Part shown: piece by piece, positions 44,045 through 60,686 of the stretch | Layout of the letters: the number at the start of each line of letters is the position of its first letter | Numbering within the stretch: the stretch's first letter is position 1 | Source: Coraliomargarita algicola | GTDB lineage: Bacteria > Verrucomicrobiota > Verrucomicrobiia > Opitutales > Coraliomargaritaceae | Length of the DNA: 64,000 bases | NCBI RefSeq assembly: GCF_033878955.1 | Contig: NZ_CP138858.1 | Location: 2,556,803 to 2,620,802 of the forward strand | Reading direction: 5' to 3' | Translations under genes and position numbers: made by a program | The notes under the pieces: model-generated | What the model saw: the letters and a program-made list of their open reading frames with translations, nothing else | Told to the model about the DNA's origin: nothing | Databases searched by the model: none

Positions 44045-45256
44045 ATGAATGCACTCATCTACAGTAACGAATATCCACCCTACAATTATGGCGGCGCAGG
44101 AGTGCATGTTGAATATCTAACCAAGGAACTCGCCAAACTACCCGATGTGGACGTCGATGTGCGCGCTTTTGGCGATCAAGAACAGAGCGGCTACCCGCTC
44201 AAGGTAAAAGGCTATCCCGTCGACACCAGTCAGTATGGTGCGCCCAAGCACTTACACTCCATCTTCGGCAGCTCCCAGCGAGCCATCACTTACAACGCCG
44301 ACGGCAACGAGGCCGACGTTGTACACTGCCACACCTGGTATACTCACCTAGCCGGCATCATGACTAAGATGAACTACGGCATCCCGCTCGTCATCACCGG
44401 CCACTCTTTGGAACCCCTCCGCCCCTGGAAACGCGAGCAACTCAAAGGCGGTTACGACTTTAGCAGCTGGGTCGAAAAGACCGCACTTGAAATGGCCGAC
44501 GCCGTGGTCGCCGTATCTGAAGGCACCAAGACCGACATCCTCAAACACTTCAATGTAGCTCCCGAAAAAGTGCATGTGATTTATAACGGCATCGACACTG
44601 AAGAATACAAGCCCGTCGATCCCAGCCCTGCGCTGTCCAAGTTCAACATTCCCAATGACAAGCCGTACGTACTCTTCGTCGGCCGCATCACACGCCAAAA
44701 GGGCATCATCCACCTAGTCGAAGCGATCAAGTACATGAACGACAATTATAATGTCGTGCTCTGCGCCGGCGCGCCCGACACCGAGGAGATCGCCGCCGAG
44801 ATGAAAGCCGCTGTCGCCGCAGCCAGCCAAGAGCGCGATGGCATTTATTGGGTCGACGAAATGGTCAATAAGACCGACATCATTCAGCTCTACTCCGGAG
44901 CCGCCGTCTTCTGCTGCCCGTCCATCTATGAGCCCTTCGGCATTATCAATCTCGAAGCCATGGCCTGTGAAACCCCCGTTGTCGGCTCCGCCGTAGGCGG
45001 CATCCCCGAAGTCGTCGTCCACGACGAAACCGGCTTCCTGGTCCCCGTCGCGCAACAACACGAGAGCCCCTTCGCGCCACTCCATCCCACCGCATACGCC
45101 AAGGACCTGGCACATCAAGTCAACCGCTTGATGGACGATCCCGCAAAACGCGAACGCTTCGCCAAAGCCGGCCGCAAACGCGCCGTCGAACAATTCAGCT
45201 GGACCAGCATCGCCCAACAAACGCGCGACCTCTACGTCTCCCTACAAAAATCTTAA
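44045..45256 (+). CDS. GT4 glycosyltransferase, GlgM-like (alpha-maltose-1-phosphate synthase / glycogen synthase-like)
   Basis: N-terminal YPPYNYGGAGVHV and a GT4 C-terminal domain. Immediately upstream of glgE. Confidence 0.55.
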   Translation: MNALIYSNEYPPYNYGGAGVHVEYLTKELAKLPDVDVDVRAFGDQEQSGYPLKVKGYPVDTSQYGAPKHLHSIFGSSQRAITYNADGNEADVVHCHTWYTHLAGIMTKMNYGIPLVITGHSLEPLRPWKREQLKGGYDFSSWVEKTALEMADAVVAVSEGTKTDILKHFNVAPEKVHVIYNGIDTEEYKPVDPSPALSKFNIPNDKPYVLFVGRITRQKGIIHLVEAIKYMNDNYNVVLCAGAPDTEEIAAEMKAAVAAASQERDGIYWVDEMVNKTDIIQLYSGAAVFCCPSIYEPFGIINLEAMACETPVVGSAVGGIPEVVVHDETGFLVPVAQQHESPFAPLHPTAYAKDLAHQVNRLMDDPAKRERFAKAGRKRAVEQFSWTSIAQQTRDLYVSLQKS

Positions 45257-47597: not shown

Positions 47598-47713
47598 CAG
47601 CAGCACTTAGTGCACGCTGCGGATGGGATCATCCGCCCTCCCAAGGACGCATTTTCGACTGTGAATAGCTTCTGCTTGCATTGAAGATAAGGGGGCGCAA
47701 TCTCCCCCTTCCC

Positions 47714-50700
47714 ATGCCAGAGAAAGATACTGAATTCGTCCACCTTCACGTCCATACAGATCACAGTCTGCTGGATGGTTGTAGCCGGACGGATCGACTG
47801 TGCGCACGTGCCGCCGAACTGGGGATGAAGGCCCTCTCGATCACCGACCACGGTGTGCTCTATGGTCTGACCAGTTTTTTTAAACAAGCAGAAAAGCATG
47901 GGATCAAGCCGCTGCTAGGCTGCGAAGTCTACCTCGTCTACGAAGATCAACTGGCCACCGTCAACGAAGAGCGCGCCAAACAAAAGTCCCGCCACATGGG
48001 GCTACTCGCACGCAATTTCACGGGTTACCAGAATCTGTGCAAAATCGTATCCAAGGCGCATACGCAAGGCTTCTACCGCAACCCGCGCACCGACCTTAAA
48101 ACTCTGGCCGAACACAGCGAAGGCCTGATCGGCTTTTCCGGCTGCTTGGCTGCCGTCATTCCGCAGTATCTGCTCAAGGGCGAGTTCGAAGAAGCCCGCG
48201 CGGCGGCCGCCAAGTTTATCGATATTTTCGGCAAGGACTACTTCATCATCGAGATCATGGATCACGGGATCGAAGAACAGCGTCGCATCATACCGGGCCT
48301 ACTCAAAATTGCGGCTGAATTTGACCTCAAAGTCGTCGCCACCAATGATGTACACTACGTCAATAAAACCGATTGGGAGCCGCACGACTCACTGCTGTGT
48401 ATCCAAACCGGAGCGAAGATACGCGACGAGAAACGTATGCGCTATGATGCGCAACAGTTCTACCTAAAGTCGCGTGAAGAGATGGACCTCGCCTTCAAAG
48501 AAGTGCCTGAGTCCATCACCAACACTTCCGCCATCGCAGAGATGTGCGAGGTCAAACTCCCCTTCGGCGAAGACCACTATCCTGTTTACGAACGCCCCGC
48601 CGAAATCGAAAGTGGTAACGACCATGTCAATTTTGAGCGCGTGCTGGACATCTACGTCGCCAAGAAAAACGAAATTTTGGTGCGCGACGGCAAAGAGCCG
48701 ATCGAACTCTCGGAGGCCGAACGAATTAAGCACAAAAGCAACGGACTCTACCTGTTCGAGCTTTGTAAAATCGGCCTAAAGGAACGCTACGGCACCGACT
48801 ACGATGCCTGCCGGGCGGACTGGGAAAATGCCTCCGCCCAAGACAAGCGCTATTGCGAACAACTCGAATACGAGCTCGCCATTATCACCGGCACGGGCTT
48901 CGTAGATTACTTCCTGATCGTTTGGGACTTCATTGCCTGGGCACGCAAACAAGGTATCCCCGTCGGCCCTGGCCGTGGTTCGGGTGCAGGTTGTATTGTC
49001 GCCTACGTGCTGAAGATTACAGACATCGATCCTCTCAGTTTCGGCCTGCTATTCGAGCGGATGCTTAACTTGGAACGTGTCTCGCCACCTGACTTCGACG
49101 TCGACTTCTGTATGCGGCGACGCGATGAAGTGGTCAATTATGTGCGCGATAAATACGGCAAAGACCGCGTGGCCAATATCATTACCTTCGGCACCTTTGG
49201 AGCCAAAATGATCATTCGCGACTTGGCACGCGTCAACGATCTGGAGTTTGCCGAGGCCAACAAACTGGCCAAGATGATCCCCGACGAGCTGAACATTACG
49301 CTCGACGACTCTGTCAAGAAATCGCCGGAACTCGCGGCCGAGGTCAACCGAAACCCCGTCGCCCGATCCATCCTCGACCAAGGCCGCGTGATCGAGGGGA
49401 TGATTCGCAACACAGGTAAACATGCCTGTGGTGTGATCATCGCTGACCAAGACATTACCAATCTAATCCCCGTCACCCTGCAGGAAGGTGATTTGACCAC
49501 GCAGTATCCCAAGGGCCCCTCGGAAGACCTGGGCCTGCTCAAGATGGACTTCTTGGGCCTCAAGACATTGACGGTGATCTCCGATGCAGAGAAGAATGTA
49601 CGCATGACGCGTGACATGCCCGACTTCAACGTCGAGAAAGTCTCACTCAAAGACAAAGAAACCTTCGACCTGCTCAACTCCGGTCGCACCACCGCCGTCT
49701 TCCAATTGGAATCCGGTGGCATGCAGCAGCTCTGTCGTCAGATCGGCCTGAGCTCCTTCGAGGAGATTATCGCGTTGATCGCGCTCTATCGTCCTGGGCC
49801 GATGCAGTTCATACCGCAGTTCATCGAAGGTAAAAAAGATCCCTCTACGGTGCAGATTCCCCACCCTTTGCTAAAAGAGCTAGTGCAGGAAACTTACGGG
49901 GTATTGGTTTACCAAGAACAGGTGATGCAATCTGCACAGATCATCGCAGGCTATACACTAGGCGGTGCGGATATTTTGCGCCGCGCGATGGGTAAGAAGA
50001 TTAAGTCGGTGATGGATGAGCAAAAGGGCGTCTTCATCAAAGGCGCCAAGGAAACCAACAACATCGACCGTAAAACCGCCGAATCGATCTTTGCCTTGCT
50101 GGAGAAATTTGCCCAATACGGTTTTAATAAGTCGCACTCCGCAGCTTATGCGATGCTCAGTTATCGCACTGCGTATTTAAAAGCCAACTACCCGGTGGAG
50201 TTCATGGCGGCCGTGCTCACCTCCGAGCAAGGCAATGCGGACAAGCTATCCAATTTCCTCGCAGAGTGTAACGCGATGAACGTGCCGGTGCTCAGCCCGG
50301 ATGTAAATGAGTCCGGAGCGGACTTCACCCCAGTCATTGAAAAGGGCGAAGGTTGTATTCGTTTCGGTATGGCATCCATCAAAGGCGTCGGCGAAGGTGC
50401 CGCCAAAGTGATCATCGCCGAACGCGACGCCAATGGCACTTACAAAGATTTCACCGACTTCATCGTTCGCAACTCCGACAAAGCCGTCAATCGACGGGTG
50501 ATGGAAGCGCTGATCAAAACCGGTGGCTTCGACTCGCTGGGCGAGGACCGTGCCAGCCTACTCGATGGGCTCGACTCCGAACTCGCCGAAGCAGAAAGCG
50601 CCCGCAAAGATCGCGAAGCGGGCCAAAGCAGCCTCTTCGACATGCTCGGCGATGATAGTGGCGTGGCCGACGAAGACAAACCTGGCAGCAATCGACGCAC

Positions 50701-51412
50701 TGTCGAGGAGATGGGCATGACCGAAAAGCTCCGCTACGAAAAAGAACTGCTGGGCTTCTACATCTCCGGGCACCCCATGGATGCTTATGCCGCTCTCGAC
50801 GATGCCATCGACAGCTTTCGCCACCCCGACGACCTGTTTAACTTTGACGACCGCAGCAGCTTCCGTCTGTGCGGAATCGTCAGCAATTTACAGATCAAAT
50901 ACACGCGCAAAGACAGCAAGCAAATGGCAGTCTTCAATCTGGCCACTCGCAACCATAGCTTCGAGATGATCATGTTTCCCGATCCATATGCCAAGGAGGG
51001 GCACCGCTTGGAGGATGGAAAACTCGCATTGATCCATGGCATTATCGGTCGCCGCAATGGAGAGATGAGCCTGGCCGCGCATAACATCTTCGATCTAGAG
51101 GTCTCGATTCCGAAACTCATTCAACGCATTAATTTCATCCTCTACCCGAATAGCAAAGCCGTCGAATTCATCAACCTACTACGCGACACCATCGACGAGC
51201 AATACGGAGAGACGCGTGTGAATATCAGCTTCCTGGTCGAAGACCAAATCCTGGAGGCCCAAACGGCGCAATCACTCACCTTCACAATCACCGGCACTAA
51301 TTTCAAATCACTACGCCGCCACCCCGCCCTCGCCGGGGTGCGAATCGAAGCCATCGACTTGAAACCGATTGATGATCGCAAGCCGTGGGAAAAGCGAGGG
51401 AAGAAATTCTAG
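47714..51412 (+). CDS. dnaE: DNA polymerase III alpha subunit
   Basis: PHP domain ([13 protein letters not shown]) and a full-length DnaE. Confidence 0.95.
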
Positions 51413-52575
51413 GACTGTGCCATACGAATCAATTTCGTCTCCGCATCATAGAAATAATCCGGGATCTCTTCAGACAAAGTCAGACGAATCGCCTCTTCAA
51501 TCACTGCTAGCGGTGCCACGAACCACTCTCGCGGCGTATGTCGTTTGCCTACGTCATCAAAAACATCGATTTCTAGGCAAGCTTTTGCAAAAAACTTATG
51601 CAGCAACAGTTCCAGCTTCTGCGGATTGAGGTTATAGCACTCAAAGCTAGTAACAATTCTAACTGGTGCCATCAAATATGTAGGATCATCTGCAGCGTTT
51701 TTAATGCGTTCTTCCACCGAGCCACGGCTGTAGCCGATTTTGTATAAATCCTTATTTTGCGCAATCTTCGGATTCTGGCTTCGAGACCTTAACACATAGA
51801 TAGTTCCAGTTTGCTGATCGGTATCCGTCAGGCCATCGAGTTCTTTGACCAAGCGATCTTCATGCTCAGTAATGCGACGCCCATCTTTATACAGTTCACG
51901 CGCCAGCGATCGTAGCAACATCGCAGACTCTGTCCCATTTTCAAAGATGCAGCGCATCCGCGCGTTGACCTTACCACCTTTAAGCTCTTTTTCACCGACT
52001 GCTGCGACGTAGGCCATGATGCCTTTGAGCACAAAAAACTGCCCAGTTTCGATCTGTTGCTCATTGGCAAAAGGTAACATCTGCCGCTTACCGCTTCTCA
52101 AGTCTTGATGACAATTTTTAAACAGTGGCTCAAAGCGATCAAAGTCTTCGCATGCTTCACGCTGCGCGATGTAGTCGGGCATCTCAATCTGACTTCGGAC
52201 ATGCTTCAGGTTGAAGATGTCTACCTCGGGCGCAGGATCATCTAAAAGCCCAAGGTCGTCATCGTTATAAATATCTTCCATCGATGCGGGTGGTTCCAGT
52301 GTCGCGAGCAGACCAAATTCATCGAAGTTCTGTAGCAGCTGCAACTTTGCTTCGTCTTTGCGCAGTGCACTGAGGCTCATCGCCAATTGCGCTTCTTGCA
52401 TATTTGATGGATTCACTTCGGGCTCACGCGCATGTAAGCGATAAAACTCGGTGATCTGGTGAAATTTATCGATCAAGCGCTCTTCTGCACTTTGCGCGGT
52501 CGACTGCACTGGCTTCACATCCAGCAAGCCGAGATCATCATCCGCGATCAATTGTTTTAGTTGCTCGGCATCCAT
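51409..52575 (-). CDS. T5orf172 / GIY-YIG-like domain protein (YeeC-like)
   Basis: C-terminal TIYVLRSR...[16 protein letters not shown]...LHKFF...EWF resembles T5orf172. Size is close to the B. subtilis YeeC-type protein. Confidence 0.55.
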
Positions 52576-52577
52576 GC

Positions 52578-54497
52578 TTAAAGTCCCTGCTGCTTGCGTT
52601 GCTGCTTAATAAACACTAATGCCTCGGCCATCCGCTTTTCCTGTCCATCATAGGCAGTCAAGGAAGGTGGACGCCCATGCGTCTTCACAAAGGCTTTGAT
52701 TTTAGGCCACAACAGTAGCGCTTCCGCTTCGGTCATTTGCAAACGAGTGGTCGCGATGCAGTCCATGATCGCCTTCAGCACGGGGGGCGTCACCTGCTTG
52801 GAAAGGATCTCAAAGGCTTTCTGGAAGGGGTTGATGGAATCGATCAAGTCGATGTTGAGCTCATCGATATTGATAAACTGGTTCGCCATGCGGATGATAC
52901 GGCGATCGCCGCCATCTTCCATCACCGCGCCCACCATGACAGAGTCCACCACAACATGCTGACGCAATTCCTCACATTCACGCTCATCGAGGTCGGGGTA
53001 TTTCTTTTGAATGATCTTTGGAATCAAGACCTTATTGATCACCTCGGGGTCGACATCGCCCGGCATGGCTTTTTGCATCGAACGATCTTGTAAAATCGTC
53101 GCCTTTAAATCGTTGAGGTCGGATTCGATGATGTCCTTCACGCGTTGTGAGCTGGGCTCCTTAAATCCTCGGATCTTCAGTTCCCCAGGCGCGTTGACCT
53201 CATCCTCTGAAACACGGGTTTTAAACTTAAAATGGGGCGCTAGCACTTGCTCCATCAACAAGGAACATGTGATCGCCTTGAGCATATTATTCACCGCAAA
53301 GCTGACCTCGTCGTCACCTGCATCGGGCTGTGCGATCAGATTAGTAAACTGCGCGTGCGTCTTGTTCGTGCTATCACGAGTGCAGCGCCCGATGATCTGC
53401 ACCACTTCCGTCAAAGAGCCGCGATAGCCGACCGTCAGAGCATGCTCGCAAAAGGGCCAGTCAAAGCCTTCTTTCGCCATGCCCAGCGCGATAATTAAGT
53501 CCATCTCTTCAGGCTGACGGATCTTGCGCAGATAATTCACCACTCGGTCGCGTTGCTCTTTAACGTCCCAGACCAAGTCGGCTACCTTGAGCTGCTTTTG
53601 ATCGCCATGCCGTTCGACCGTCATAATGCCCGTTTCTGGATCAGTATAAATGACACGCCCGATCATGCCGAGAATATGCCCGACCTCACCATGCTTGTCC
53701 TTGGTCGATTCGCCTGCGTTCGGACTTGGAATATGGAGAATCGTTTTCTTATCCGTATCCAGCACCTCCGCAATCGCCGAAGTATAACGGCCCTGATAAA
53801 AGTGATACCCGATCCCCAGCGATTTAAGGTGCTGGTAGCCGTTGAGCTGCTCATAATAATTATAGGTGACATGCCGGAACAGCGCTTCGTCCTCAGGTGC
53901 GAGCACGGGCACGCGATCTCCACGGAAGTAAGAGCCAGTCATCGCCACAATATGCGCACTGGACTTCGCCAGGACATCCCGCAGCACTTCTCCTAGCTGG
54001 TTGTCACTATCCGCAGAAACATGGTGAAACTCGTCAATCGCCAGTAGCACATTGTCAAAGGCGGACGTCTCGACTTCTTTAAATGCGTAGCGAAGGGTCG
54101 CGTGTGTGCACAGCAGCACAGAATCATAGCTAGTTAAAAACTCCCGAAACTGCCGCACTTTACCCGCATCCCCATCCGTCGCGCACAAGTCACAATGCGG
54201 CTCCAAGCTCCAATCATGCGGGAAGCCATAAGCCGACAAACGAGTCGACGCAAAGGACGCCGCGATCGATCGCTCTGGCACCGCCACGATGGTTTTACGC
54301 ACGCCCTGATGCTGCATCTTATCCAAGGCCAAAAACATCAAGGCCCGCGATTTACCCGAAGCAGGCGGCGCTTTGACTAACAAGTATTGCGCATCACGCT
54401 GGGCATACACCCGCGCCTGCATTTCGCGCATGCCGAAGGCATCGGTATTGGTGCTCTGGCCTGTCTGGCCGTAAGTGACTTCTACGAGGTTAGGCAT
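52578..54497 (-). CDS. SF2 DExH-box helicase (YeeB-like)
   Basis: Walker A APPASGKS and DExH motif AIDEFHHV. About 640 aa. Confidence 0.7.
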   Translation of the reverse strand: MPNLVEVTYGQTGQSTNTDAFGMREMQARVYAQRDAQYLLVKAPPASGKSRALMFLALDKMQHQGVRKTIVAVPERSIAASFASTRLSAYGFPHDWSLEPHCDLCATDGDAGKVRQFREFLTSYDSVLLCTHATLRYAFKEVETSAFDNVLLAIDEFHHVSADSDNQLGEVLRDVLAKSSAHIVAMTGSYFRGDRVPVLAPEDEALFRHVTYNYYEQLNGYQHLKSLGIGYHFYQGRYTSAIAEVLDTDKKTILHIPSPNAGESTKDKHGEVGHILGMIGRVIYTDPETGIMTVERHGDQKQLKVADLVWDVKEQRDRVVNYLRKIRQPEEMDLIIALGMAKEGFDWPFCEHALTVGYRGSLTEVVQIIGRCTRDSTNKTHAQFTNLIAQPDAGDDEVSFAVNNMLKAITCSLLMEQVLAPHFKFKTRVSEDEVNAPGELKIRGFKEPSSQRVKDIIESDLNDLKATILQDRSMQKAMPGDVDPEVINKVLIPKIIQKKYPDLDERECEELRQHVVVDSVMVGAVMEDGGDRRIIRMANQFINIDELNIDLIDSINPFQKAFEILSKQVTPPVLKAIMDCIATTRLQMTEAEALLLWPKIKAFVKTHGRPPSLTAYDGQEKRMAEALVFIKQQRKQQGL

Positions 54498-54503
54498 TAT
54501 AAA

Positions 54504-55340
54504 CTAAAAAAGTAATGTTTGAGCATCATAAGGTGTGGGAACGACACTGATGATCACATAAGGATTGGGTGCACGTTTGTTGTGGTGCTGCAAAGTTGTG
54601 CCTAGCACGAGGGTGAGATCGTATTTTCCGCTTTGAACGAAAGTGTCCCAATACTTTTCGCGCACCTTCTGAACAGCAACCGCTTCATCTCCATCCGCAT
54701 TTTTTAGACAGTTCCAATAGAGTGCACCGATTTCCCAATCCTCAATCATCAGCTTCGGCGTTTTGCCACTGACATCTTTGAATTTATAGGAGAATTTATA
54801 AGGCAATTTTTTGACCACCTTGAACTCTTCTTCAATCGTCGCCTCGTCTTTAAACAGATCAAATTGCTGCTTCTGCGCTTCTAACAACTCAAGCTTCTTG
54901 GGATTCCACTCACGATCCGTTTTTTCGACGACAAAATCCGTCATCTCTTGGGGTTTATAATGTGCCAATGAGGCGAGATTCCCATGCGCTTGTTCGATTA
55001 ATTCCGCGATGTTCGTCTCTAGTGCGACTTGATTGTGGAAGGCTTCTTTCCGAGCCAACCATTTATCCGCAGTCGGGATTGGTCCGCCGATTAACTTCAG
55101 ACTATCCGGATTTTTGATCTTATAACTTTCTGGGCGACCATCAGTGGTCGATTTCTCGATATCCGCTTCGACCCACTGATACTTCTGATACTGACTGCCG
55201 TCCTGTAGCTGGCGAAAGCACACTGGATAAATACGTCGCCATTCCCCGCTTTCATTCACTCCCGCGGTACAGACTAATTCAGCATACTTGCTCGACAGCG
55301 TGGGGTAGGTTTTTACAGCTATCAGAATTCGCTCGATCAT
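54504..55340 (-). CDS. hypothetical protein (no recognisable motifs)
   Basis: ORF sits between the helicase (7-bp gap) and the Panacea-DUF488 gene (4-bp overlap). Confidence 0.5.
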   Translation of the reverse strand: MIERILIAVKTYPTLSSKYAELVCTAGVNESGEWRRIYPVCFRQLQDGSQYQKYQWVEADIEKSTTDGRPESYKIKNPDSLKLIGGPIPTADKWLARKEAFHNQVALETNIAELIEQAHGNLASLAHYKPQEMTDFVVEKTDREWNPKKLELLEAQKQQFDLFKDEATIEEEFKVVKKLPYKFSYKFKDVSGKTPKLMIEDWEIGALYWNCLKNADGDEAVAVQKVREKYWDTFVQSGKYDLTLVLGTTLQHHNKRAPNPYVIISVVPTPYDAQTLLF

Positions 55341-56251
55341 AGATGCGTTACTTTGTAACCAATATCGGCCTCAAGTAAATCGCTAATGCAATGACGGTGA
55401 CAACAATGAGGCTCCGCTTCGAAACAAGTCAACGCGACACGTTTGTTTTGCTCAATCACCTCTTGTAAACGTTCCAAGCCTTCACGGCGGGTCGGAAGTT
55501 CTTCTCGATAGCCCGCAAAGAGACGCTCGTAATCGGCCATCGAGTTAAGCTCCTGCCGCTTATCAGACTCAATCCCTAACTCTGGAAAATGGACGTATTC
55601 GATCCCAAGCTTCGGTAAGACCTTGCTTAGCATTCTCGAAGAAAACCCAAATTTACGACTCAGTGGATTACGTCGCACATCACAAAGCACGGACACTCGA
55701 TTGCGAATGAGTTTATTCAAATATTCCTCAAAATGAATACCTTCGTAACCAATGGTAAAAACGATCACTTCTTCTGGTTTCACTTCAGGTAATGAGGCCG
55801 CCACCGCATTTAACTCCTCCTGGCTGAGCAGACGTTCCTTCATTTCGCTGTGGATTGCATAGAAAGGGAAGCGACGATAGGTCGTGTGCACCAAGTCCTC
55901 TCCGCGTTCTGGATGACGATAAAGCCAGCGCTTAACTGCACGCCGTTCTTCGTTCTGACGCGCCCAACTCTCGCGGCTAATATCTTCAACTAATGAGAAC
56001 TCCTTCTCACCTACTGAAATCCAGCCCCGTTTGTCCATCAGGTCAAGGTCATCGGCGGCCAGAAAAGAGTAGCAACCATAGCGAAAAGGCACGAAAGCAT
56101 AATGCTCAGCCTCTTTCTCTGCATGATAAAGAAAGAGGAGTTTTTGCAGATCCATTTTAGACACCGCCCCATCCAACGCCTCCAAAAAGAATAGAAGAAG
56201 TCGTTGGCGCTTATAGGTCGGCGCCTTTGGTTTTACTGAACGAGTGATCAT
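55337..56251 (-). CDS. Panacea (DUF4065/SocA-like)-DUF488 fusion protein
   Basis: N-terminus MDLQKLLFLYHAE...FVPFRYGCYS resembles the GepA/Panacea antitoxin domain. The C-terminal ~150 aa resemble DUF488 (YeaO-like). Confidence 0.5.
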   Translation of the reverse strand: MITRSVKPKAPTYKRQRLLLFFLEALDGAVSKMDLQKLLFLYHAEKEAEHYAFVPFRYGCYSFLAADDLDLMDKRGWISVGEKEFSLVEDISRESWARQNEERRAVKRWLYRHPERGEDLVHTTYRRFPFYAIHSEMKERLLSQEELNAVAASLPEVKPEEVIVFTIGYEGIHFEEYLNKLIRNRVSVLCDVRRNPLSRKFGFSSRMLSKVLPKLGIEYVHFPELGIESDKRQELNSMADYERLFAGYREELPTRREGLERLQEVIEQNKRVALTCFEAEPHCCHRHCISDLLEADIGYKVTHL

Positions 56252-56316
56252 TATTTTAAGATTGAATCAATGTATGCTTTGAAGCAAAGCTGAAATTTCC
56301 TCATAAAGAGACTCGA

Positions 56317-57066
56317 TCATTTCACGCTCAAATCCTTCGTTTTACGATCAATTTTAATATAACGGTCAAGGTATGGAATTATTTCAGGATGCTGGAACGC
56401 TGGTGCATAAGATGATCTATAATACCCTTCTTCTGATTGAACTCTTCTCCGACTTGAAGTTGAATAATATAAATTTTTATAAATCAGCGCAGGTCGAGAC
56501 AAGTGCCCCTTCTTTTCTAGGATCGCTTCAAGCAGACCACCTACAATTTTATAAGCAAGTGGATTGCTTACCGCGTTTTTAATCGACTCAAGCTCTAGAG
56601 AGAGCGAATTAACAATTTTATTCTCTGTTTCTATTTCATAATCTAAAACTCGGCAATATCGCCTAATAAACCAAACAGTCTCATCAAGTTTCCACACTTC
56701 ATACGGATCTGTATGGTGGGACCTTTCAAAATATCGAGATGGAGTGTTCTTCTGTAATCTCTTGATGAATTCGTAAACATTGTCGTTCAATTCCAACTCA
56801 AATTTCAGTTCCTTTGTTTTAAGAAGGCACTGATCAATACTATGCTGAACCTTCTTTGCCTCGACACGATTGAAGAGCAAAATTGCCTTTAAGTATTTTT
56901 CGATACATTGCTGCGCTAAGGCTAAATATTGAGGTATTAAGCCATTGTGATAGCAAACTCTCGCTGCAATATAATCTTGATCAGCGATTTCACGGAACAC
57001 TCTAACCGCATAAGTATTAATGGCACATTTAATTGAGTGAGGTTCACTAGTTATGTCGTCACTCAT
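56317..57066 (-). CDS. HEPN-like protein (Rx4-6H motif)
   Basis: RYFERSHH fits the HEPN Rx4-6H motif. The gene is strongly AT-rich relative to its flanks and overlaps the MTase stop by 4 bp. Confidence 0.45.
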   Translation of the reverse strand: MSDDITSEPHSIKCAINTYAVRVFREIADQDYIAARVCYHNGLIPQYLALAQQCIEKYLKAILLFNRVEAKKVQHSIDQCLLKTKELKFELELNDNVYEFIKRLQKNTPSRYFERSHHTDPYEVWKLDETVWFIRRYCRVLDYEIETENKIVNSLSLELESIKNAVSNPLAYKIVGGLLEAILEKKGHLSRPALIYKNLYYSTSSRRRVQSEEGYYRSSYAPAFQHPEIIPYLDRYIKIDRKTKDLSVK

Positions 57067-59732
57067 TTCTTCCCCTCCTGTTCTTTTGCGATCATGGCTT
57101 CGTAGCGTTTGAAGAGATGTTCGAGGCGTTCTTCGTCGGAGGTGAAAGGTGCTTTTTGGTAGAGGCGGTCGACGGTGAGATCGAGTGCTTGGTGCGCGGC
57201 ACGCAGGCCGGCGGGCATTTTGTCCGGATCATAGAGCTGAGCCATCGTCTTTTCCGGATGGTTCTCGCGCTCTTGCAAGACCTGCATCACCTGCGTCGTT
57301 AGTTCCTGCTTTTGCGTAGCGCTTAAGTTGGGGACGGGGAAGGTGTTATAGCAGAGCCCTGCCGAATAACGATAGTCGGTTTTTAAACGTCCCGCCACTG
57401 CGCGCACCCAAGTCATGTGCATGCGAGAGGTGAGTAGGCCGAAGATAGTGGGATCGGCGTCGTAGATTGCGTATGCGAGATTAGATATGACGGTATCTTT
57501 ATCCAGAAAACCAGATGGCACATATTCGCGTCGTTCTGAACTCACTTCTGGAATGATGACCGATTCAGATTTCTGATACCGAATTTCGCTAAATGCATGT
57601 GCCCTCTCTGCATCCTCTCGGGTCGTGGCTTTCTGGCTAGCTAATCGCATTTCTCGAACTTGATTAATACGATTAAATACTGGCTTAGTCTCAAGTGCTT
57701 GTTGCAGGTCTTGATTTTCGATCCAAAGACAATAGCGAACACTGCCTCTAATAAATTCAACTGAGCCAATGTATTTCTTTAATAACGAAGCAGCCGATGG
57801 GTATTCTTCAATCAGGCTCCGGCGCTCTTCTACGGACAAGATCAAATTACCACCATCAACAGGTTTACTACCATAACTGATCGGGGGCAGGTTTGAGATG
57901 GACCGTGAACGCTTAAATACGATTACATCTGCCCCAGTTGATAGATAAGGATTGATCACTTTTACGTGACTAGCCAAGCCTCCACGATAGAGAATTGCGG
58001 CCTCATTTGATTTAACCCGGAGCCCAACAATCGCACAGGTGACGCCTGCATTCCCTTTCGCGTTATTTGTCCATTTGAATGACTGATGCGCAAATCCAAT
58101 TTCTAAGCCACGCTTTAAAACATGAGGCCACAGCAATGCGACCTGTTCGCCCTGACAAATCGAATTAGTAGTCACAAATGCAGCTTTTATGTTGGAATTC
58201 GTGATAAACTTTCCCGCCTTAAAAAACCAACAAGCAATGAAGTCTAAATTCTTGTAGCCCTTTATTCCTGTAAAAACATACGCCATATCGGATTTGTGCA
58301 AAGCAGTCTGCATGCTGGCTCCCAGATACGGCGGATTGCCCAAGATATAAATCTCATCGCCGTCTTCCTTCGGGCAGACGCTTTCCCAATCGATGCGGCA
58401 GGCGTTGGCGCATTTAATATTGGCTCCATCGCGGAGCGGGAGGTTGTCGGGAGCTTGGCCGCAGACACGTTTAGACTCCAAGTTCATCTGATGCTCGGTC
58501 AACCAAAGCGCCAGCACGGCGGTCTCGGCGGCGAAGTCGGCAATTTCGATGCCGTAGAACTGGCTGACTTGTAGGCCTGAAAGTGGGAGTTCGCCGGTTG
58601 TCCGCTGCAACTCTTGAAAGATGTCCATCTCCAAGCGACGCAGCTCCTTGTAGGCGATGATCAGGAAATTACCCGAACCACAGGCAGGGTCGAAGATTTT
58701 CACCTTAGCGATGCGTTCCAGCAGACGATGGAGTGCTTGTGATTGGCCGCGCCGGAGGCTGCAGGCCTTTTCAAAGGCCTCACGAAAATCGTTTAAAAAG
58801 AGCGGCTCGATCACCTTCATGATGTTGGTCACCGAGGTGTAGTGCTGCCCTAGATTGTGCCTTTCTTCGGGATCGATCACCGCTTGGAACATCGAACCGA
58901 AAATGTCGGGGTTGATGTCGGCCCAGCTAAGCTCACCCGCTTCCAGCATCATGCGGCGCGCCTTCATCGAGAACTCAGGAATCGGAAAATGCTCACGAAA
59001 GAGTCCACCATTCACATAGGGCAGGCTCTGCAAGTGTTGCGGTAGGCCCGCGCGCGATTTACGGTCGAGAATATCGAACAGTCGCACAAAAAAGTCGTGC
59101 AAGTCGCTACCGTCGGCCGCGGTGTGTGAGGCAATGGCGTTACTGATCGCATTCTCTTCCGGAAAGATGCCGGTGTCCTCCGCATAAAAGCAGAACAGCA
59201 AGCGCGCCAGAAAGACATTCATGGCATGGCTATTGGCTTCCACGAACTCCGGATTGTGAGAGCGGATCGCATCAAATAGCTTGGCCATGCGCTCAGCAGC
59301 CTTGATGTCGGCTGGGTTCTCGTTGGAAAGTTTGGTCTTCTCCATCCCTGCTAGCGGCAGGAAGAAGTCGAAATGGCTCGGCAAGTCCGCCAATTTACAG
59401 TCCAGCGTGTCGTCCGTCTTACGATCCAGCGCCACCAGATGTTGAAAATCAGTGACCAACAAAAAGCGCGGATCATTGGACAGCATGGCTTTGTCCGACT
59501 TCAACGTATCCAGAGTCGCAAACAAATCGCCCTCGGTCGGCTTAAAGTAGAGCTTCTTCTTAAACAACAAGTCGCCCTCCAGCTTAGCCAAATTCATCGT
59601 GCCCGACTTCAGACGTGTGACATTCGCCTGCGGCGTGCCATAGGCTTCAAGAAATGCATAGATAAACTCGCTTTGCTCGGGGAGTTTCCGAACTAGTGAT
59701 GTAATGTTGTCAGCGACCTCAAAGTAATGCAT
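57063..59732 (-). CDS. MmeI/YeeA-family N6-adenine DNA methyltransferase (Type IIL/IIG-like, 889 aa)
   Basis: Motif I FDPACGSGNFL and motif IV GNPPY. MmeI-like N-terminal region and a C-terminal TRD-like region. Confidence 0.75.
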   Translation of the reverse strand: MHYFEVADNITSLVRKLPEQSEFIYAFLEAYGTPQANVTRLKSGTMNLAKLEGDLLFKKKLYFKPTEGDLFATLDTLKSDKAMLSNDPRFLLVTDFQHLVALDRKTDDTLDCKLADLPSHFDFFLPLAGMEKTKLSNENPADIKAAERMAKLFDAIRSHNPEFVEANSHAMNVFLARLLFCFYAEDTGIFPEENAISNAIASHTAADGSDLHDFFVRLFDILDRKSRAGLPQHLQSLPYVNGGLFREHFPIPEFSMKARRMMLEAGELSWADINPDIFGSMFQAVIDPEERHNLGQHYTSVTNIMKVIEPLFLNDFREAFEKACSLRRGQSQALHRLLERIAKVKIFDPACGSGNFLIIAYKELRRLEMDIFQELQRTTGELPLSGLQVSQFYGIEIADFAAETAVLALWLTEHQMNLESKRVCGQAPDNLPLRDGANIKCANACRIDWESVCPKEDGDEIYILGNPPYLGASMQTALHKSDMAYVFTGIKGYKNLDFIACWFFKAGKFITNSNIKAAFVTTNSICQGEQVALLWPHVLKRGLEIGFAHQSFKWTNNAKGNAGVTCAIVGLRVKSNEAAILYRGGLASHVKVINPYLSTGADVIVFKRSRSISNLPPISYGSKPVDGGNLILSVEERRSLIEEYPSAASLLKKYIGSVEFIRGSVRYCLWIENQDLQQALETKPVFNRINQVREMRLASQKATTREDAERAHAFSEIRYQKSESVIIPEVSSERREYVPSGFLDKDTVISNLAYAIYDADPTIFGLLTSRMHMTWVRAVAGRLKTDYRYSAGLCYNTFPVPNLSATQKQELTTQVMQVLQERENHPEKTMAQLYDPDKMPAGLRAAHQALDLTVDRLYQKAPFTSDEERLEHLFKRYEAMIAKEQEGKK

Positions 59733-60116
59733 CCAGACAACAAAGTGACTATTCTTGACTGCGTCAATTAAGTTAAAAATCCGTCAAATCGCATTAGTAT
59801 AAATAGAAACCGCTTCGCCAATTCGATAGACTCATGCTTGTCGAACGAACTTCGCTACAAACGACTCTCCCGAGGCACGAACTTCTTACTGCATTGTTAT
59901 ACATAGCAGGGGTACCAAACAAATCAGCACCAACACCAAATCTAGCAAAAGCGACTAAACTCACAGCTACGTGGCAATGGTGAGTATTCAAATATAGGAT
60001 ACGATTAAGTTTCGTTTTTTGAGACTTAAAAAGAGCTTGCATACACATTTGCATCGCCTCAAAAGCTAGTTTGGCACGAAAAAAGCTCTAGCGAGCAATC
60101 ACCACACACAACCATT

Positions 60117-60686
60117 ATGCGATCTACATCTAAACTCCCCATCGTATGCCTCGTAGCACTTTTCGTAGCGGGTTCAGCCTCAGCCGCAGTCAACGTAACA
60201 CTTGAGGCGGTGGGGGTCGACGTCGTTGCGACAGTAACTGGCACTGCCAATCTTACAGATCTGACTTATGAAGACTCCGGTAACTTTGGCGGTGGCGGGC
60301 TCTCGAGTAGCGCGGGTTCGTTTTTAGTAGGAACAGGTGAATTTGACATATACTCCCTCCTGCCCTCGATCCCATTTGGACCTGGGGGAAATTTCACGAG
60401 CGACAGCAACACGGGGAGTGCGCTTGGAGTATTTTTCTATACTACAATTACCACATTGCTAGTGCCCGCTGACTACGCTTCTGGCGAGAGCCTCAATGCA
60501 ACATCGACCTTCAATAACAAGACAATCGCAGATATCGGCGCGACGCCAGGCAGCTACGTATGGAACTGGGGGACTGGTGCAAACGCCGACAGCGTCACGC
60601 TGACCGTCGTGCCCGAAAGCAACACTTACGCGGCTCTGGCTGGTATCTTCGCACTGGCCTGCGTGGCGATGCGTCGACGCAAGTAG
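60117..60686 (+). CDS. PEP-CTERM-anchored secreted protein
   Basis: Signal peptide and a C-terminal VPESNTYAALAGIFALACVAMRRRK. Confidence 0.8.
   Translation: MRSTSKLPIVCLVALFVAGSASAAVNVTLEAVGVDVVATVTGTANLTDLTYEDSGNFGGGGLSSSAGSFLVGTGEFDIYSLLPSIPFGPGGNFTSDSNTGSALGVFFYTTITTLLVPADYASGESLNATSTFNNKTIADIGATPGSYVWNWGTGANADSVTLTVVPESNTYAALAGIFALACVAMRRRK

Follow-up and report, generated by a model that had tools for sequence, protein, structure and literature searches.

The stretch of DNA analysed here, referred to as the window, comprises 64,000 nucleotides of Coraliomargarita algicola (contig NZ_CP138858.1, positions 2,556,803 to 2,620,802 of the forward strand). It contains a cluster of six genes on the minus strand, named g1 to g6 in the presumed direction of reading, which combines a methyltransferase (MTase), a helicase and a GIY-YIG-like protein of the yeeABC type with a HEPN protein and the candidate defence pair PDC-M19. 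An initial annotation of the sequence had proposed six such genes, and all six open reading frames (ORFs) were found at the positions it gave. The features are as follows, with product lengths in amino acids (aa).

57063..59732, minus strand: g1, MmeI-family N6-adenine DNA MTase, YeeA/DnmA-type, 889 aa
56317..57066, minus strand: g2, HEPN protein, cargo module 1, 249 aa
55337..56251, minus strand: g3, PDC-M19A, 304 aa
54504..55340, minus strand: g4, PDC-M19B, 278 aa
52578..54497, minus strand: g5, superfamily 2 (SF2) helicase, YeeB-type, 639 aa
51409..52575, minus strand: g6, T5orf172/GIY-YIG-like protein, YeeC-type, 388 aa
54498..57062, minus strand: cargo slot with g2, g3 and g4, 2.57 kb at the MTase-helicase junction
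59733..60116, no strand: upstream leader or putative promoter region, with only small non-conserved ORFs

The genes are tightly packed. The start of g2 overlaps the stop of g1 by 4 bp (57063-57066), g3 and g4 overlap by 4 bp (55337-55340), and g5 and g6 are 2 bp apart, all as described initially, but g4 and g5 are separated by 6 bp rather than 7. The widest gap, 65 bp (56252-56316), lies between g2 and g3 and was absent from the initial description. Pfam matches were obtained for the predicted MmeI-family MTase with its NPPY motif, the HEPN protein, the DUF488 domain, the DExH helicase (whose motif reads DEFH) and the T5orf172 protein.

A yeeABC-type frame and its cargo slot

The g1 product matched all five MmeI domains of Pfam (MmeI_N, hel, Mtase, TRD and C; E values of 4e-104 for Mtase, 1.9e-80 for TRD and 2.6e-22 for C) and, over its full length, the PADLOC model REase_MTase_IIG (1034 bits). 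It carries the motifs FDPACGSGNF and NPPY. When compared by phmmer with the MmeI sequence of 5hr4 (E value of 1.4e-195), the alignment began at g1 residue 87 and MmeI residue 107. The PD-ExK catalytic residues of MmeI are D70, E80 and K82 (Morgan 2009), and a D...ExK string was sought in residues 1 to 86 and found neither in g1 nor in 42 related proteins. Judged by alignment rather than by structural superposition, g1 appears to be without the N-terminal PD-ExK nuclease triad of MmeI.

A different string resembling PD-(D/E)xK, D95-x7-D103-x-K105 (g1 residues 95-105, window 59448-59468), is kept by YeeA-type MTases. D95 was present in 39 of 43 sequences, D103 in all 43 and K105 in 34, with the MTase N termini of loci L081, L085 and L091-L169 included. 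D95 and D103 align with MmeI D115 and D123, i.e., outside the published D70/E80/K82 triad, and the string may be structural or may form a cryptic active site.

The g5 product matched the Pfam families DEAD, ResIII and Helicase_C and contains the motif series GKS...DEFH...QIIGRCTR. The g6 product matched MUG113 (4.5e-14) and T5orf172 (5e-11), with the domain at its C-terminal end and GIY/YIG-like strings kept. Morgan 2009 defined the YeeA subgroup as MmeI homologues without an endonuclease motif whose flanking genes "invariably" encode YeeB, a helicase of the DEAD family, and YeeC, a GIY-YIG protein. Homologues of g5 with 53-67% identity were found on 265 plasmids beside a DNA methyltransferase and a GIY-YIG nuclease. 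On one Bacillus plasmid (helicase 67% identical), the MTase, helicase and GIY-YIG genes abut and the MTase stop overlaps the helicase start, which shows the state of the locus without inserts. The Pfam and PADLOC assignments, together with the abutting order in relatives, bore out the earlier comparison with a YeeA/YeeB/YeeC triad. On the group definition of Morgan 2009 and on the plasmid and metagenome relatives, g1, g5 and g6 are thus predicted to form a YeeABC-type, Type I-like restriction-modification (R-M) operon. Knockouts of yeeAB in Vibrio crassostreae lost resistance to some phages (Piel 2021), whereas dnmA-yeeBC of Bacillus subtilis conferred neither restriction nor phage protection and its MTase, DnmA, regulates gene expression (Fernandez 2020/2023), suggesting that the activity of yeeABC is lineage-dependent.

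The junctions of this operon were compared across 80 metagenome loci whose helicases share 61-92% identity with g5; 66 of these loci contain both the MTase C terminus and the helicase. Of 77 related loci, 75 had the T5orf172 gene no more than 100 bp after the helicase gene. The MTase-helicase junction was no longer than 150 bp in 47 of the 66 loci (71%), and in the other 19 (29%) the two genes were 0.5-5.4 kb apart. All 33 ORFs within these 19 inserts were co-oriented with the operon. Their products included RhuM, Bro-N/KilA-N/ORF6N, DUF6119, YhcG/DUF1016, PDDEXK_3, HamA with a DEAD helicase, CAP12/Pycsar TIR, HigB, DUF3800, SLFN-AlbA_2/HATPase_c_4, KAP NTPase and HerA. The commonest cargo was the RhuM family (PADLOC PDC-S05), found in six of the 19 occupied slots (L097, L113, L122, L134, L162 and L163). 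Neither M19 nor a g2-type HEPN gene was present in any of the 66 metagenome loci. The cargo also varied among the nearest helicase relatives (80-92% identity): in the closest (L090, 92%), the ORF directly upstream of the helicase resembled HATPase_c_4 proteins by eye and gave no M19B match. From the junction counts and the cargo families, yeeABC operons recurrently hold cargo in a slot between the MTase and helicase genes, and the helicase-nuclease junction is essentially closed. The presence of cargo in about 29% of the sampled MTase-helicase junctions seems to be a new observation.

The PDC-M19 pair and the HEPN protein

One cargo module is the pair g3 and g4. The g3 product matched PADLOC PDC-M19A (PDLC04505; E value of 2.5e-100, residues 13-303 against profile positions 2-293 of 294), and that of g4 matched PDC-M19B (PDLC04508; 6.8e-100, residues 3-277 against positions 4-268 of 269). 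The 278-aa g4 product, initially taken for an orphan, therefore belongs to a recognised family, with 6,821 homologues showing 56-83% identity across phyla; it is 100% identical to hypothetical protein SH580_10505. PDC-M19 appears in supplementary file 8 of Payne 2024 (bioRxiv 10.1101/2024.01.29.577857) as the cassette FAM_02799>>FAM_02993 with the remark "Assign as candidate PDC-M19", and a literature search found no paper naming PDC-M19 and no experimental test of it.

The C-terminal part of g3 (residues 175-293) matched DUF488 (Pfam, 4e-27), which has a protein tyrosine phosphatase (PTP)-like fold, and shows a conserved C276...C284-H-R286. For the N-terminal domain (approximately residues 10-150), the best fold match was the C-terminal, DarT-binding domain of DarG (DarG-CTD). 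This domain had been annotated as Panacea (DUF4065), a candidate that was rejected since no match was found in g3 at E values up to 0.01 or in residues 1-170 at E values up to 1, with the reservation that a very faint similarity may be missed owing to the HMMER speed filters. The notion behind that annotation, that DUF488 is joined to a binding domain of the antitoxin type, is reasonable. The g4 product had no Pfam match, and its model matched single-stranded DNA (ssDNA)-binding proteins with an oligonucleotide/oligosaccharide-binding (OB) fold, not ADP-ribosyltransferases; g4 itself is described as a dual-OB, ssDNA-binding-like protein. Sequence profile searches of the PDB gave no significant relative of g3 or g4. 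The fold-level description of M19A and M19B, which is model-based, seems to be new.

The neighbourhood of the pair was examined in 80 fetched genomes carrying the g4 family. A g3 homologue lay upstream of g4 in 77 of them and the remaining three were cut at a contig end; in one locus (L049) the two genes were 1.9 kb apart. g4 is an obligate partner of g3. Distant M19B homologues (29-31% identity) without a DUF488 partner were also seen, in gp44-gp43 of Gordonia phage Nymphadora (L170:2518-4322), directly after the immunity repressor of temperate Gordonia phages, and in Sulfolobus islandicus pSOG2 (L171:3501-4367), beside the integrase of archaeal conjugative plasmids. The Gordonia gp44 product, annotated as immunity repressor and encoded upstream of the M19B-like gene, was considered as an M19A homologue and discarded, as no similarity was found. 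On mobile elements, the dual-OB protein may therefore be able to function without a partner.

In the 80 genomes, 79 same-strand neighbours were found no more than 300 bp from the pair, the commonest families among them being ResIII (10), N6_Mtase (7), Eco57I (6), N6_N4_Mtase (5), DEAD (4), SWI2_SNF2 (3) and TaqI_C (3). When these were clustered, an approximately 890-aa ResIII protein was found directly downstream of the pair in 11 loci and an N6_N4 methylase of about 625-750 aa directly upstream in eight; there, a mod and a res gene of type III-like character enclose the pair. In one of the genomes (L005:1228-3582, plus strand), the helicase of ResIII type encoded immediately downstream ends in a phosphoribosyltransferase domain (Pribosyltran, 1.2e-12), a fusion that is unusual for a type III-like Res protein. 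Other neighbours were of type IIG (5 loci), HsdM (4) and HsdS (4). An R-M-like gene lay no more than three genes away in 24 of 78 loci, on the same strand in 23, the reference set being small, and in seven loci the pair was sandwiched between the MTase gene and the helicase or Res gene of a type III, IIG, I or yeeABC system. This preference for sites with a methylase gene on one side and a helicase gene on the other, particularly in operons of type III-like systems, seems not to have been noticed before. With the same limited reference set, 54 of the 78 loci had no R-M-like neighbour within three genes and many of them lay beside housekeeping genes; the pair thus also occurs by itself.

A yeeABC operon surrounded the pair in one of the 80 genomes, a metagenome-assembled genome of the Opitutales (L002), which is also one of the seven sandwiched loci. 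Its MmeI-type MTase, helicase and T5orf172 protein were 73%, 80% and 68% identical to those of the window. The order there is MTase, a 427-aa protein, DUF2513, M19A, M19B, helicase and T5orf172, such that the HEPN position is filled by the 427-aa protein (no significant Pfam match) and the DUF2513 protein. In Thalassobacterium maritimum (L001, 6999-10837), a 36-aa N-terminal remnant of an MmeI-type MTase is followed by an XRE helix-turn-helix (XRE-HTH) gene, an M78-peptidase gene (PADLOC capP-like) and an intact M19 pair, and both the helicase gene and the T5orf172 gene are missing. The arrangement has the look of a yeeABC host that decayed while its cargo was kept and gained its own regulator pair. 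The window, L002 and L001 represent three Opitutales genomes with three different chromosomal contexts, which fits a mobile element.

These contexts raise the question of whether PDC-M19 is autonomous. It could instead be an R-M accessory that needs the neighbouring MTase or helicase, for example as a guard sensing R-M inhibition or as a factor acting on helicase-made ssDNA. Such dependence would account for the same-strand recurrence of the pair between the MTase and helicase or Res genes of several R-M types, would suit the placement of an OB-fold, ssDNA-binding-like partner beside a helicase, and has a precedent in PrrC-EcoprrI. It fits poorly with the 54 loci without an R-M-like neighbour, with the Thalassobacterium pair that follows an XRE-HTH/M78-peptidase regulator pair, and with the distant M19B homologues encoded singly on Sulfolobus plasmids and in the immunity cassette of a Gordonia prophage. 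We regard dependence on the neighbouring R-M genes as a tentative alternative, and one not to be favoured.

The other cargo gene, g2, encodes a protein that matched Pfam HEPN (PF05168) with an E value of 8.5e-11 (42.5 bits against a cut-off of 22). Its family of 472 homologues conserves E56-K57-x-x-K60, N66-R67, H75, R111-Y112 and a C-terminal extension. R111-Y112 is invariant, and the histidine after it is not conserved. The spacing between R67 and H75 is x7 (x6 in 3 of 20 sequences), just beyond the canonical Rx4-6H, and for this reason RNase activity of g2 is no more than plausible. No gene with a nucleotidyltransferase (NTase) domain, as expected of an MNT antitoxin, was found in a Pfam scan of the proteins of the locus.

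Homologues of g2 occur without the M19 pair. A four-gene contig (L085) has the order MTase, HEPN, helicase and T5orf172, with a HEPN gene product 56% identical to g2 in the same slot and no M19. Other g2 homologues were found in unrelated defence-like contexts, and that of Citrifermentans in a neighbourhood without an evident partner gene. The possibility that g2 and g3 form a toxin-antitoxin (TA) pair was rejected, as the two did not co-occur elsewhere and a g2-type HEPN gene was present in none of the 80 M19 loci. On a further contig (L084, 2-3152), a gene ending in MmeI_C overlaps by 4 bp a HEPN gene whose product is 69% identical to g2, and DUF4326, Abi_2 and HATPase_c_4 genes follow in place of the helicase and T5orf172 genes; an RNase HII gene is nearby, as in L002. 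A published assignment places DUF4326 in the rhodanese-phosphatase superfamily (PMC9503650). In Marinobacter, HEPN homologues (44% identity; L087:5319-7747 and L088:1897-4238) directly follow the gene for a 505-534-aa ATPase with AAA_21/ABC and DUF4435 matches (OLD/PARIS-like), and this ATPase-HEPN pair could be a distinct two-gene system.

A probable composite locus and its chromosomal setting

Since the HEPN gene, the M19 pair and yeeABC each occur separately elsewhere, the six-gene unit is best described as a mosaic with fast cargo turnover and not as a co-evolved system. We therefore read the locus, with a probability of about 0.8, as a composite in which a yeeABC-type frame holds two independent cargo modules, HEPN and PDC-M19, in its MTase-helicase slot. 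The embedding of defence genes in other defence operons was described by Payne 2024 (bioRxiv 10.1101/2024.01.29.577857), where candidates were collected through "guilt by embedding" in Hma, BREX, DISARM and type I R-M systems, 96.7% of embedded genes were co-oriented with the host system, and PrrC-EcoprrI was discussed as a backup paradigm. In the gene-neighbourhood comparison called for by the initial annotation, the six-gene order, like the full six-gene set, recurred in no other locus. Its proposal of one defence system of an undescribed type was consequently given up, and its interpretation as a whole is partly supported.

Two other explanations of the locus were weighed against the composite. 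In the first, yeeABC would be a non-restricting relic whose MTase acts as an orphan epigenetic regulator, and the HEPN gene and M19 pair would be selfish, TA-like addiction modules that stabilise the island. This would be in line with B. subtilis dnmA-yeeBC, with the antitoxin-like (DarG-CTD-like) domain of M19A and with the persistence of the Thalassobacterium M19 pair beside a mere 36-aa MTase remnant. Against it, all six ORFs are full length and the family-invariant motifs of the MTase, helicase and T5orf172 proteins listed above are kept, and yeeAB of Vibrio protects against some phages. In addition, the helicase (61-92% identity) and T5orf172 (31-78%) have been conserved in many lineages and the junction between them does not vary, implying selection. 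We consider a relic with addiction modules unlikely. In the second, all six genes would be one co-evolved, integrated six-component defence system of a new type; despite the tight co-oriented packing with 4-bp overlaps at two junctions and the M19A and M19B genes between the same MTase and helicase in L002, this is very improbable and already largely refuted by the co-occurrence data, given that no other locus holds all six genes, that different genes fill the HEPN slot of L002, that L085 has HEPN without M19, that M19 and HEPN are missing from the 66 yeeABC loci and yeeABC from 79 of the 80 M19 loci, and that the cargo varies among the closest helicase relatives.

The locus differs from its surroundings in base composition, as had been pointed out initially. 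Its guanine-plus-cytosine (GC) content is 0.40-0.49 over approximately 54.5-58.5 kb, compared with 0.53-0.55 in the flanks, and the minimum of the locus, 0.395, lies over g2. The flanking annotation also agrees with the earlier placement between dnaE and housekeeping genes. The product of 47681-51412 matched Pfam DNA_pol3_alpha and PHP, identifying it as dnaE, which is convergent with g6; the two stop codons overlap by 4 bp (51409-51412), leaving a terminator no intergenic room where the acquired island meets this essential gene of replication. Other flanking genes encode GlgE, a glycosyltransferase, a QueE-like radical-SAM protein, a cyclophilin and also a sigma-54 activator. The GT4 glycosyltransferase (window 44045-45256, plus strand), which adjoins GlgE, also matched Pfam GT4-conflict (3.4e-17), and from its GlgE neighbour it is probably a glycogen/alpha-glucan enzyme rather than a defence gene.

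Around the island, the tRNA scan, repeat search and flank annotation revealed no tRNA gene, integrase or att-like flanking repeats marking its boundaries. A megablast search of the whole locus against plasmids returned a 279-bp helicase segment of 75% identity as its sole match, so no near-identical mobile copy of the locus is known. In a promoter and terminator scan, based on a consensus that may not suit Verrucomicrobiota, promoter-like sites were less numerous than in shuffled sequence. Neither the 65-bp gap between g2 and g3 nor the region upstream of g1 yielded anything informative, and no sigma-70-like site was seen on the minus strand of 59733-60116. The ORFs at 59794-60054 and 60059-60250 had no Pfam or NCBIfam match and no tblastn match in any fetched locus, and were for these reasons treated as non-coding.

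Proposed mechanism and relation to known systems

From the gene content, the domain and fold assignments, the modularity and the use of the slot, we infer biochemical activities, co-transcription and an anti-phage function along the following lines. g1 would methylate a single strand of its asymmetric site, labelling the DNA as self, and recognise unmethylated incoming DNA, as speculated by Morgan 2009, and would then recruit the g5 helicase for translocation and the g6 GIY-YIG subunit to cut that DNA. In this lineage the slot has captured two independent accessory modules in operon orientation. g2 is a stand-alone HEPN protein, probably an RNase-type abortive-infection (Abi) effector. M19B would bind ssDNA, and M19A is guessed to dock to it through the DarG-CTD-like domain, either masking M19B until invader ssDNA competes or delivering the DUF488 enzyme, taken to be Cys-dependent, to its substrate. 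Both cargo modules are probably expressed and transferred together with the host operon, adding mechanistically different layers of defence, and they may back up an inhibited R-M layer, as PrrC does in EcoprrI.

A more specific version can be imagined for PDC-M19, namely a two-component immune module that follows the logic of DarTG with another chemistry. Here the dual-OB protein M19B, either toxic or a sensor, would bind invader ssDNA and be held by the DarG-CTD-like domain of M19A acting as an ssDNA mimic, while the Cys-dependent DUF488 would either add a phosphate-linked modification to nucleic acid or remove one. The preferred position of the module between methylase and translocase genes would reflect a guard that fires once the R-M complex is disabled, and the yeeABC junction would be a dedicated docking slot for such guards. 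We think this scheme unlikely.

If the composite reading is true, the locus is a clear example of layered immunity, in which a restriction-like operon carries exchangeable defence cargo. The MTase-helicase slot of yeeABC, with contents that differ even among close relatives, could then be mined for new defence genes, as has been done with Hma, BREX, DISARM and type I R-M systems. PDC-M19, a widespread and uncharacterised candidate, would gain a contextual preference and a directly testable structural hypothesis, that of a DarG-CTD-like domain joined to a PTP-like DUF488 domain and a dual-OB partner. Current concepts are left unchanged by the locus.

The frame itself closely resembles the YeeABC systems described previously (Morgan 2009; Fernandez 2020/2023; Vibrio crassostreae yeeAB, Piel 2021). 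They have in common an MTase with a target-recognition domain and without PD-ExK, a DEAD-type SF2 helicase and a T5orf172/GIY-YIG gene next to it, and the gene order and sizes match those found here (889, 639 and 388 aa). The canonical MTase and helicase genes abut, as they do in 71% of the sampled loci, whereas here 2.57 kb with three extra genes lies between them.

For g2, the nearest parallel in arrangement is PrrC in the type Ic R-M system EcoprrI, which is likewise a HEPN protein encoded within an R-M operon between the modification and the restriction/translocase genes. This likeness suggests a latent backup that is freed on R-M inhibition. Unlike PrrC, g2 is without an ABC-ATPase N-terminal domain, its Arg/His spacing is non-canonical and its homologues also occur outside R-M operons. 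With the toxins of HEPN-MNT TA/Abi systems g2 shares the HEPN domain, but the adjacent MNT antitoxin gene is missing from the locus.

The PDC-M19 pair has in common with DarTG a domain, carried by g3, that resembles the C-terminal, DarT-binding domain of DarG. In DarTG, however, the antitoxin has a macrodomain or NADAR domain where g3 has the PTP-like DUF488, the partner is the ADP-ribosyltransferase DarT rather than a dual-OB protein such as g4, and the gene order is reversed, the DarG-like gene being first here. The Panacea (DUF4065) antitoxins (Kurata et al. 2022) are similar in concept, with a partner- or toxin-binding domain that could serve as an antitoxin module encoded beside the partner gene, but differ from g3, which has no DUF4065 match at E values up to 1 and finds its best fold match in the DarG C-terminal domain.

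The arrangement as a whole corresponds to the embedding described by Payne 2024, in which co-oriented accessory defence genes are likewise nested in a multi-gene defence operon and in which PDC-M19, the candidate matched by g3 and g4, is catalogued. RhuM (PDC-S05), HamA, TIR and PD-(D/E)xK proteins, all found in the yeeABC slot, belong to the usual embedded repertoire. The hosts in that study were Hma, BREX, DISARM and type I R-M, whereas the host here is yeeABC/MmeI-like (that of M19 being mostly type III-like), and two unrelated modules are stacked in one slot. The locus is thus a new combination within a described phenomenon, that of defence genes embedded in a defence operon, and in this respect it is fairly ordinary.

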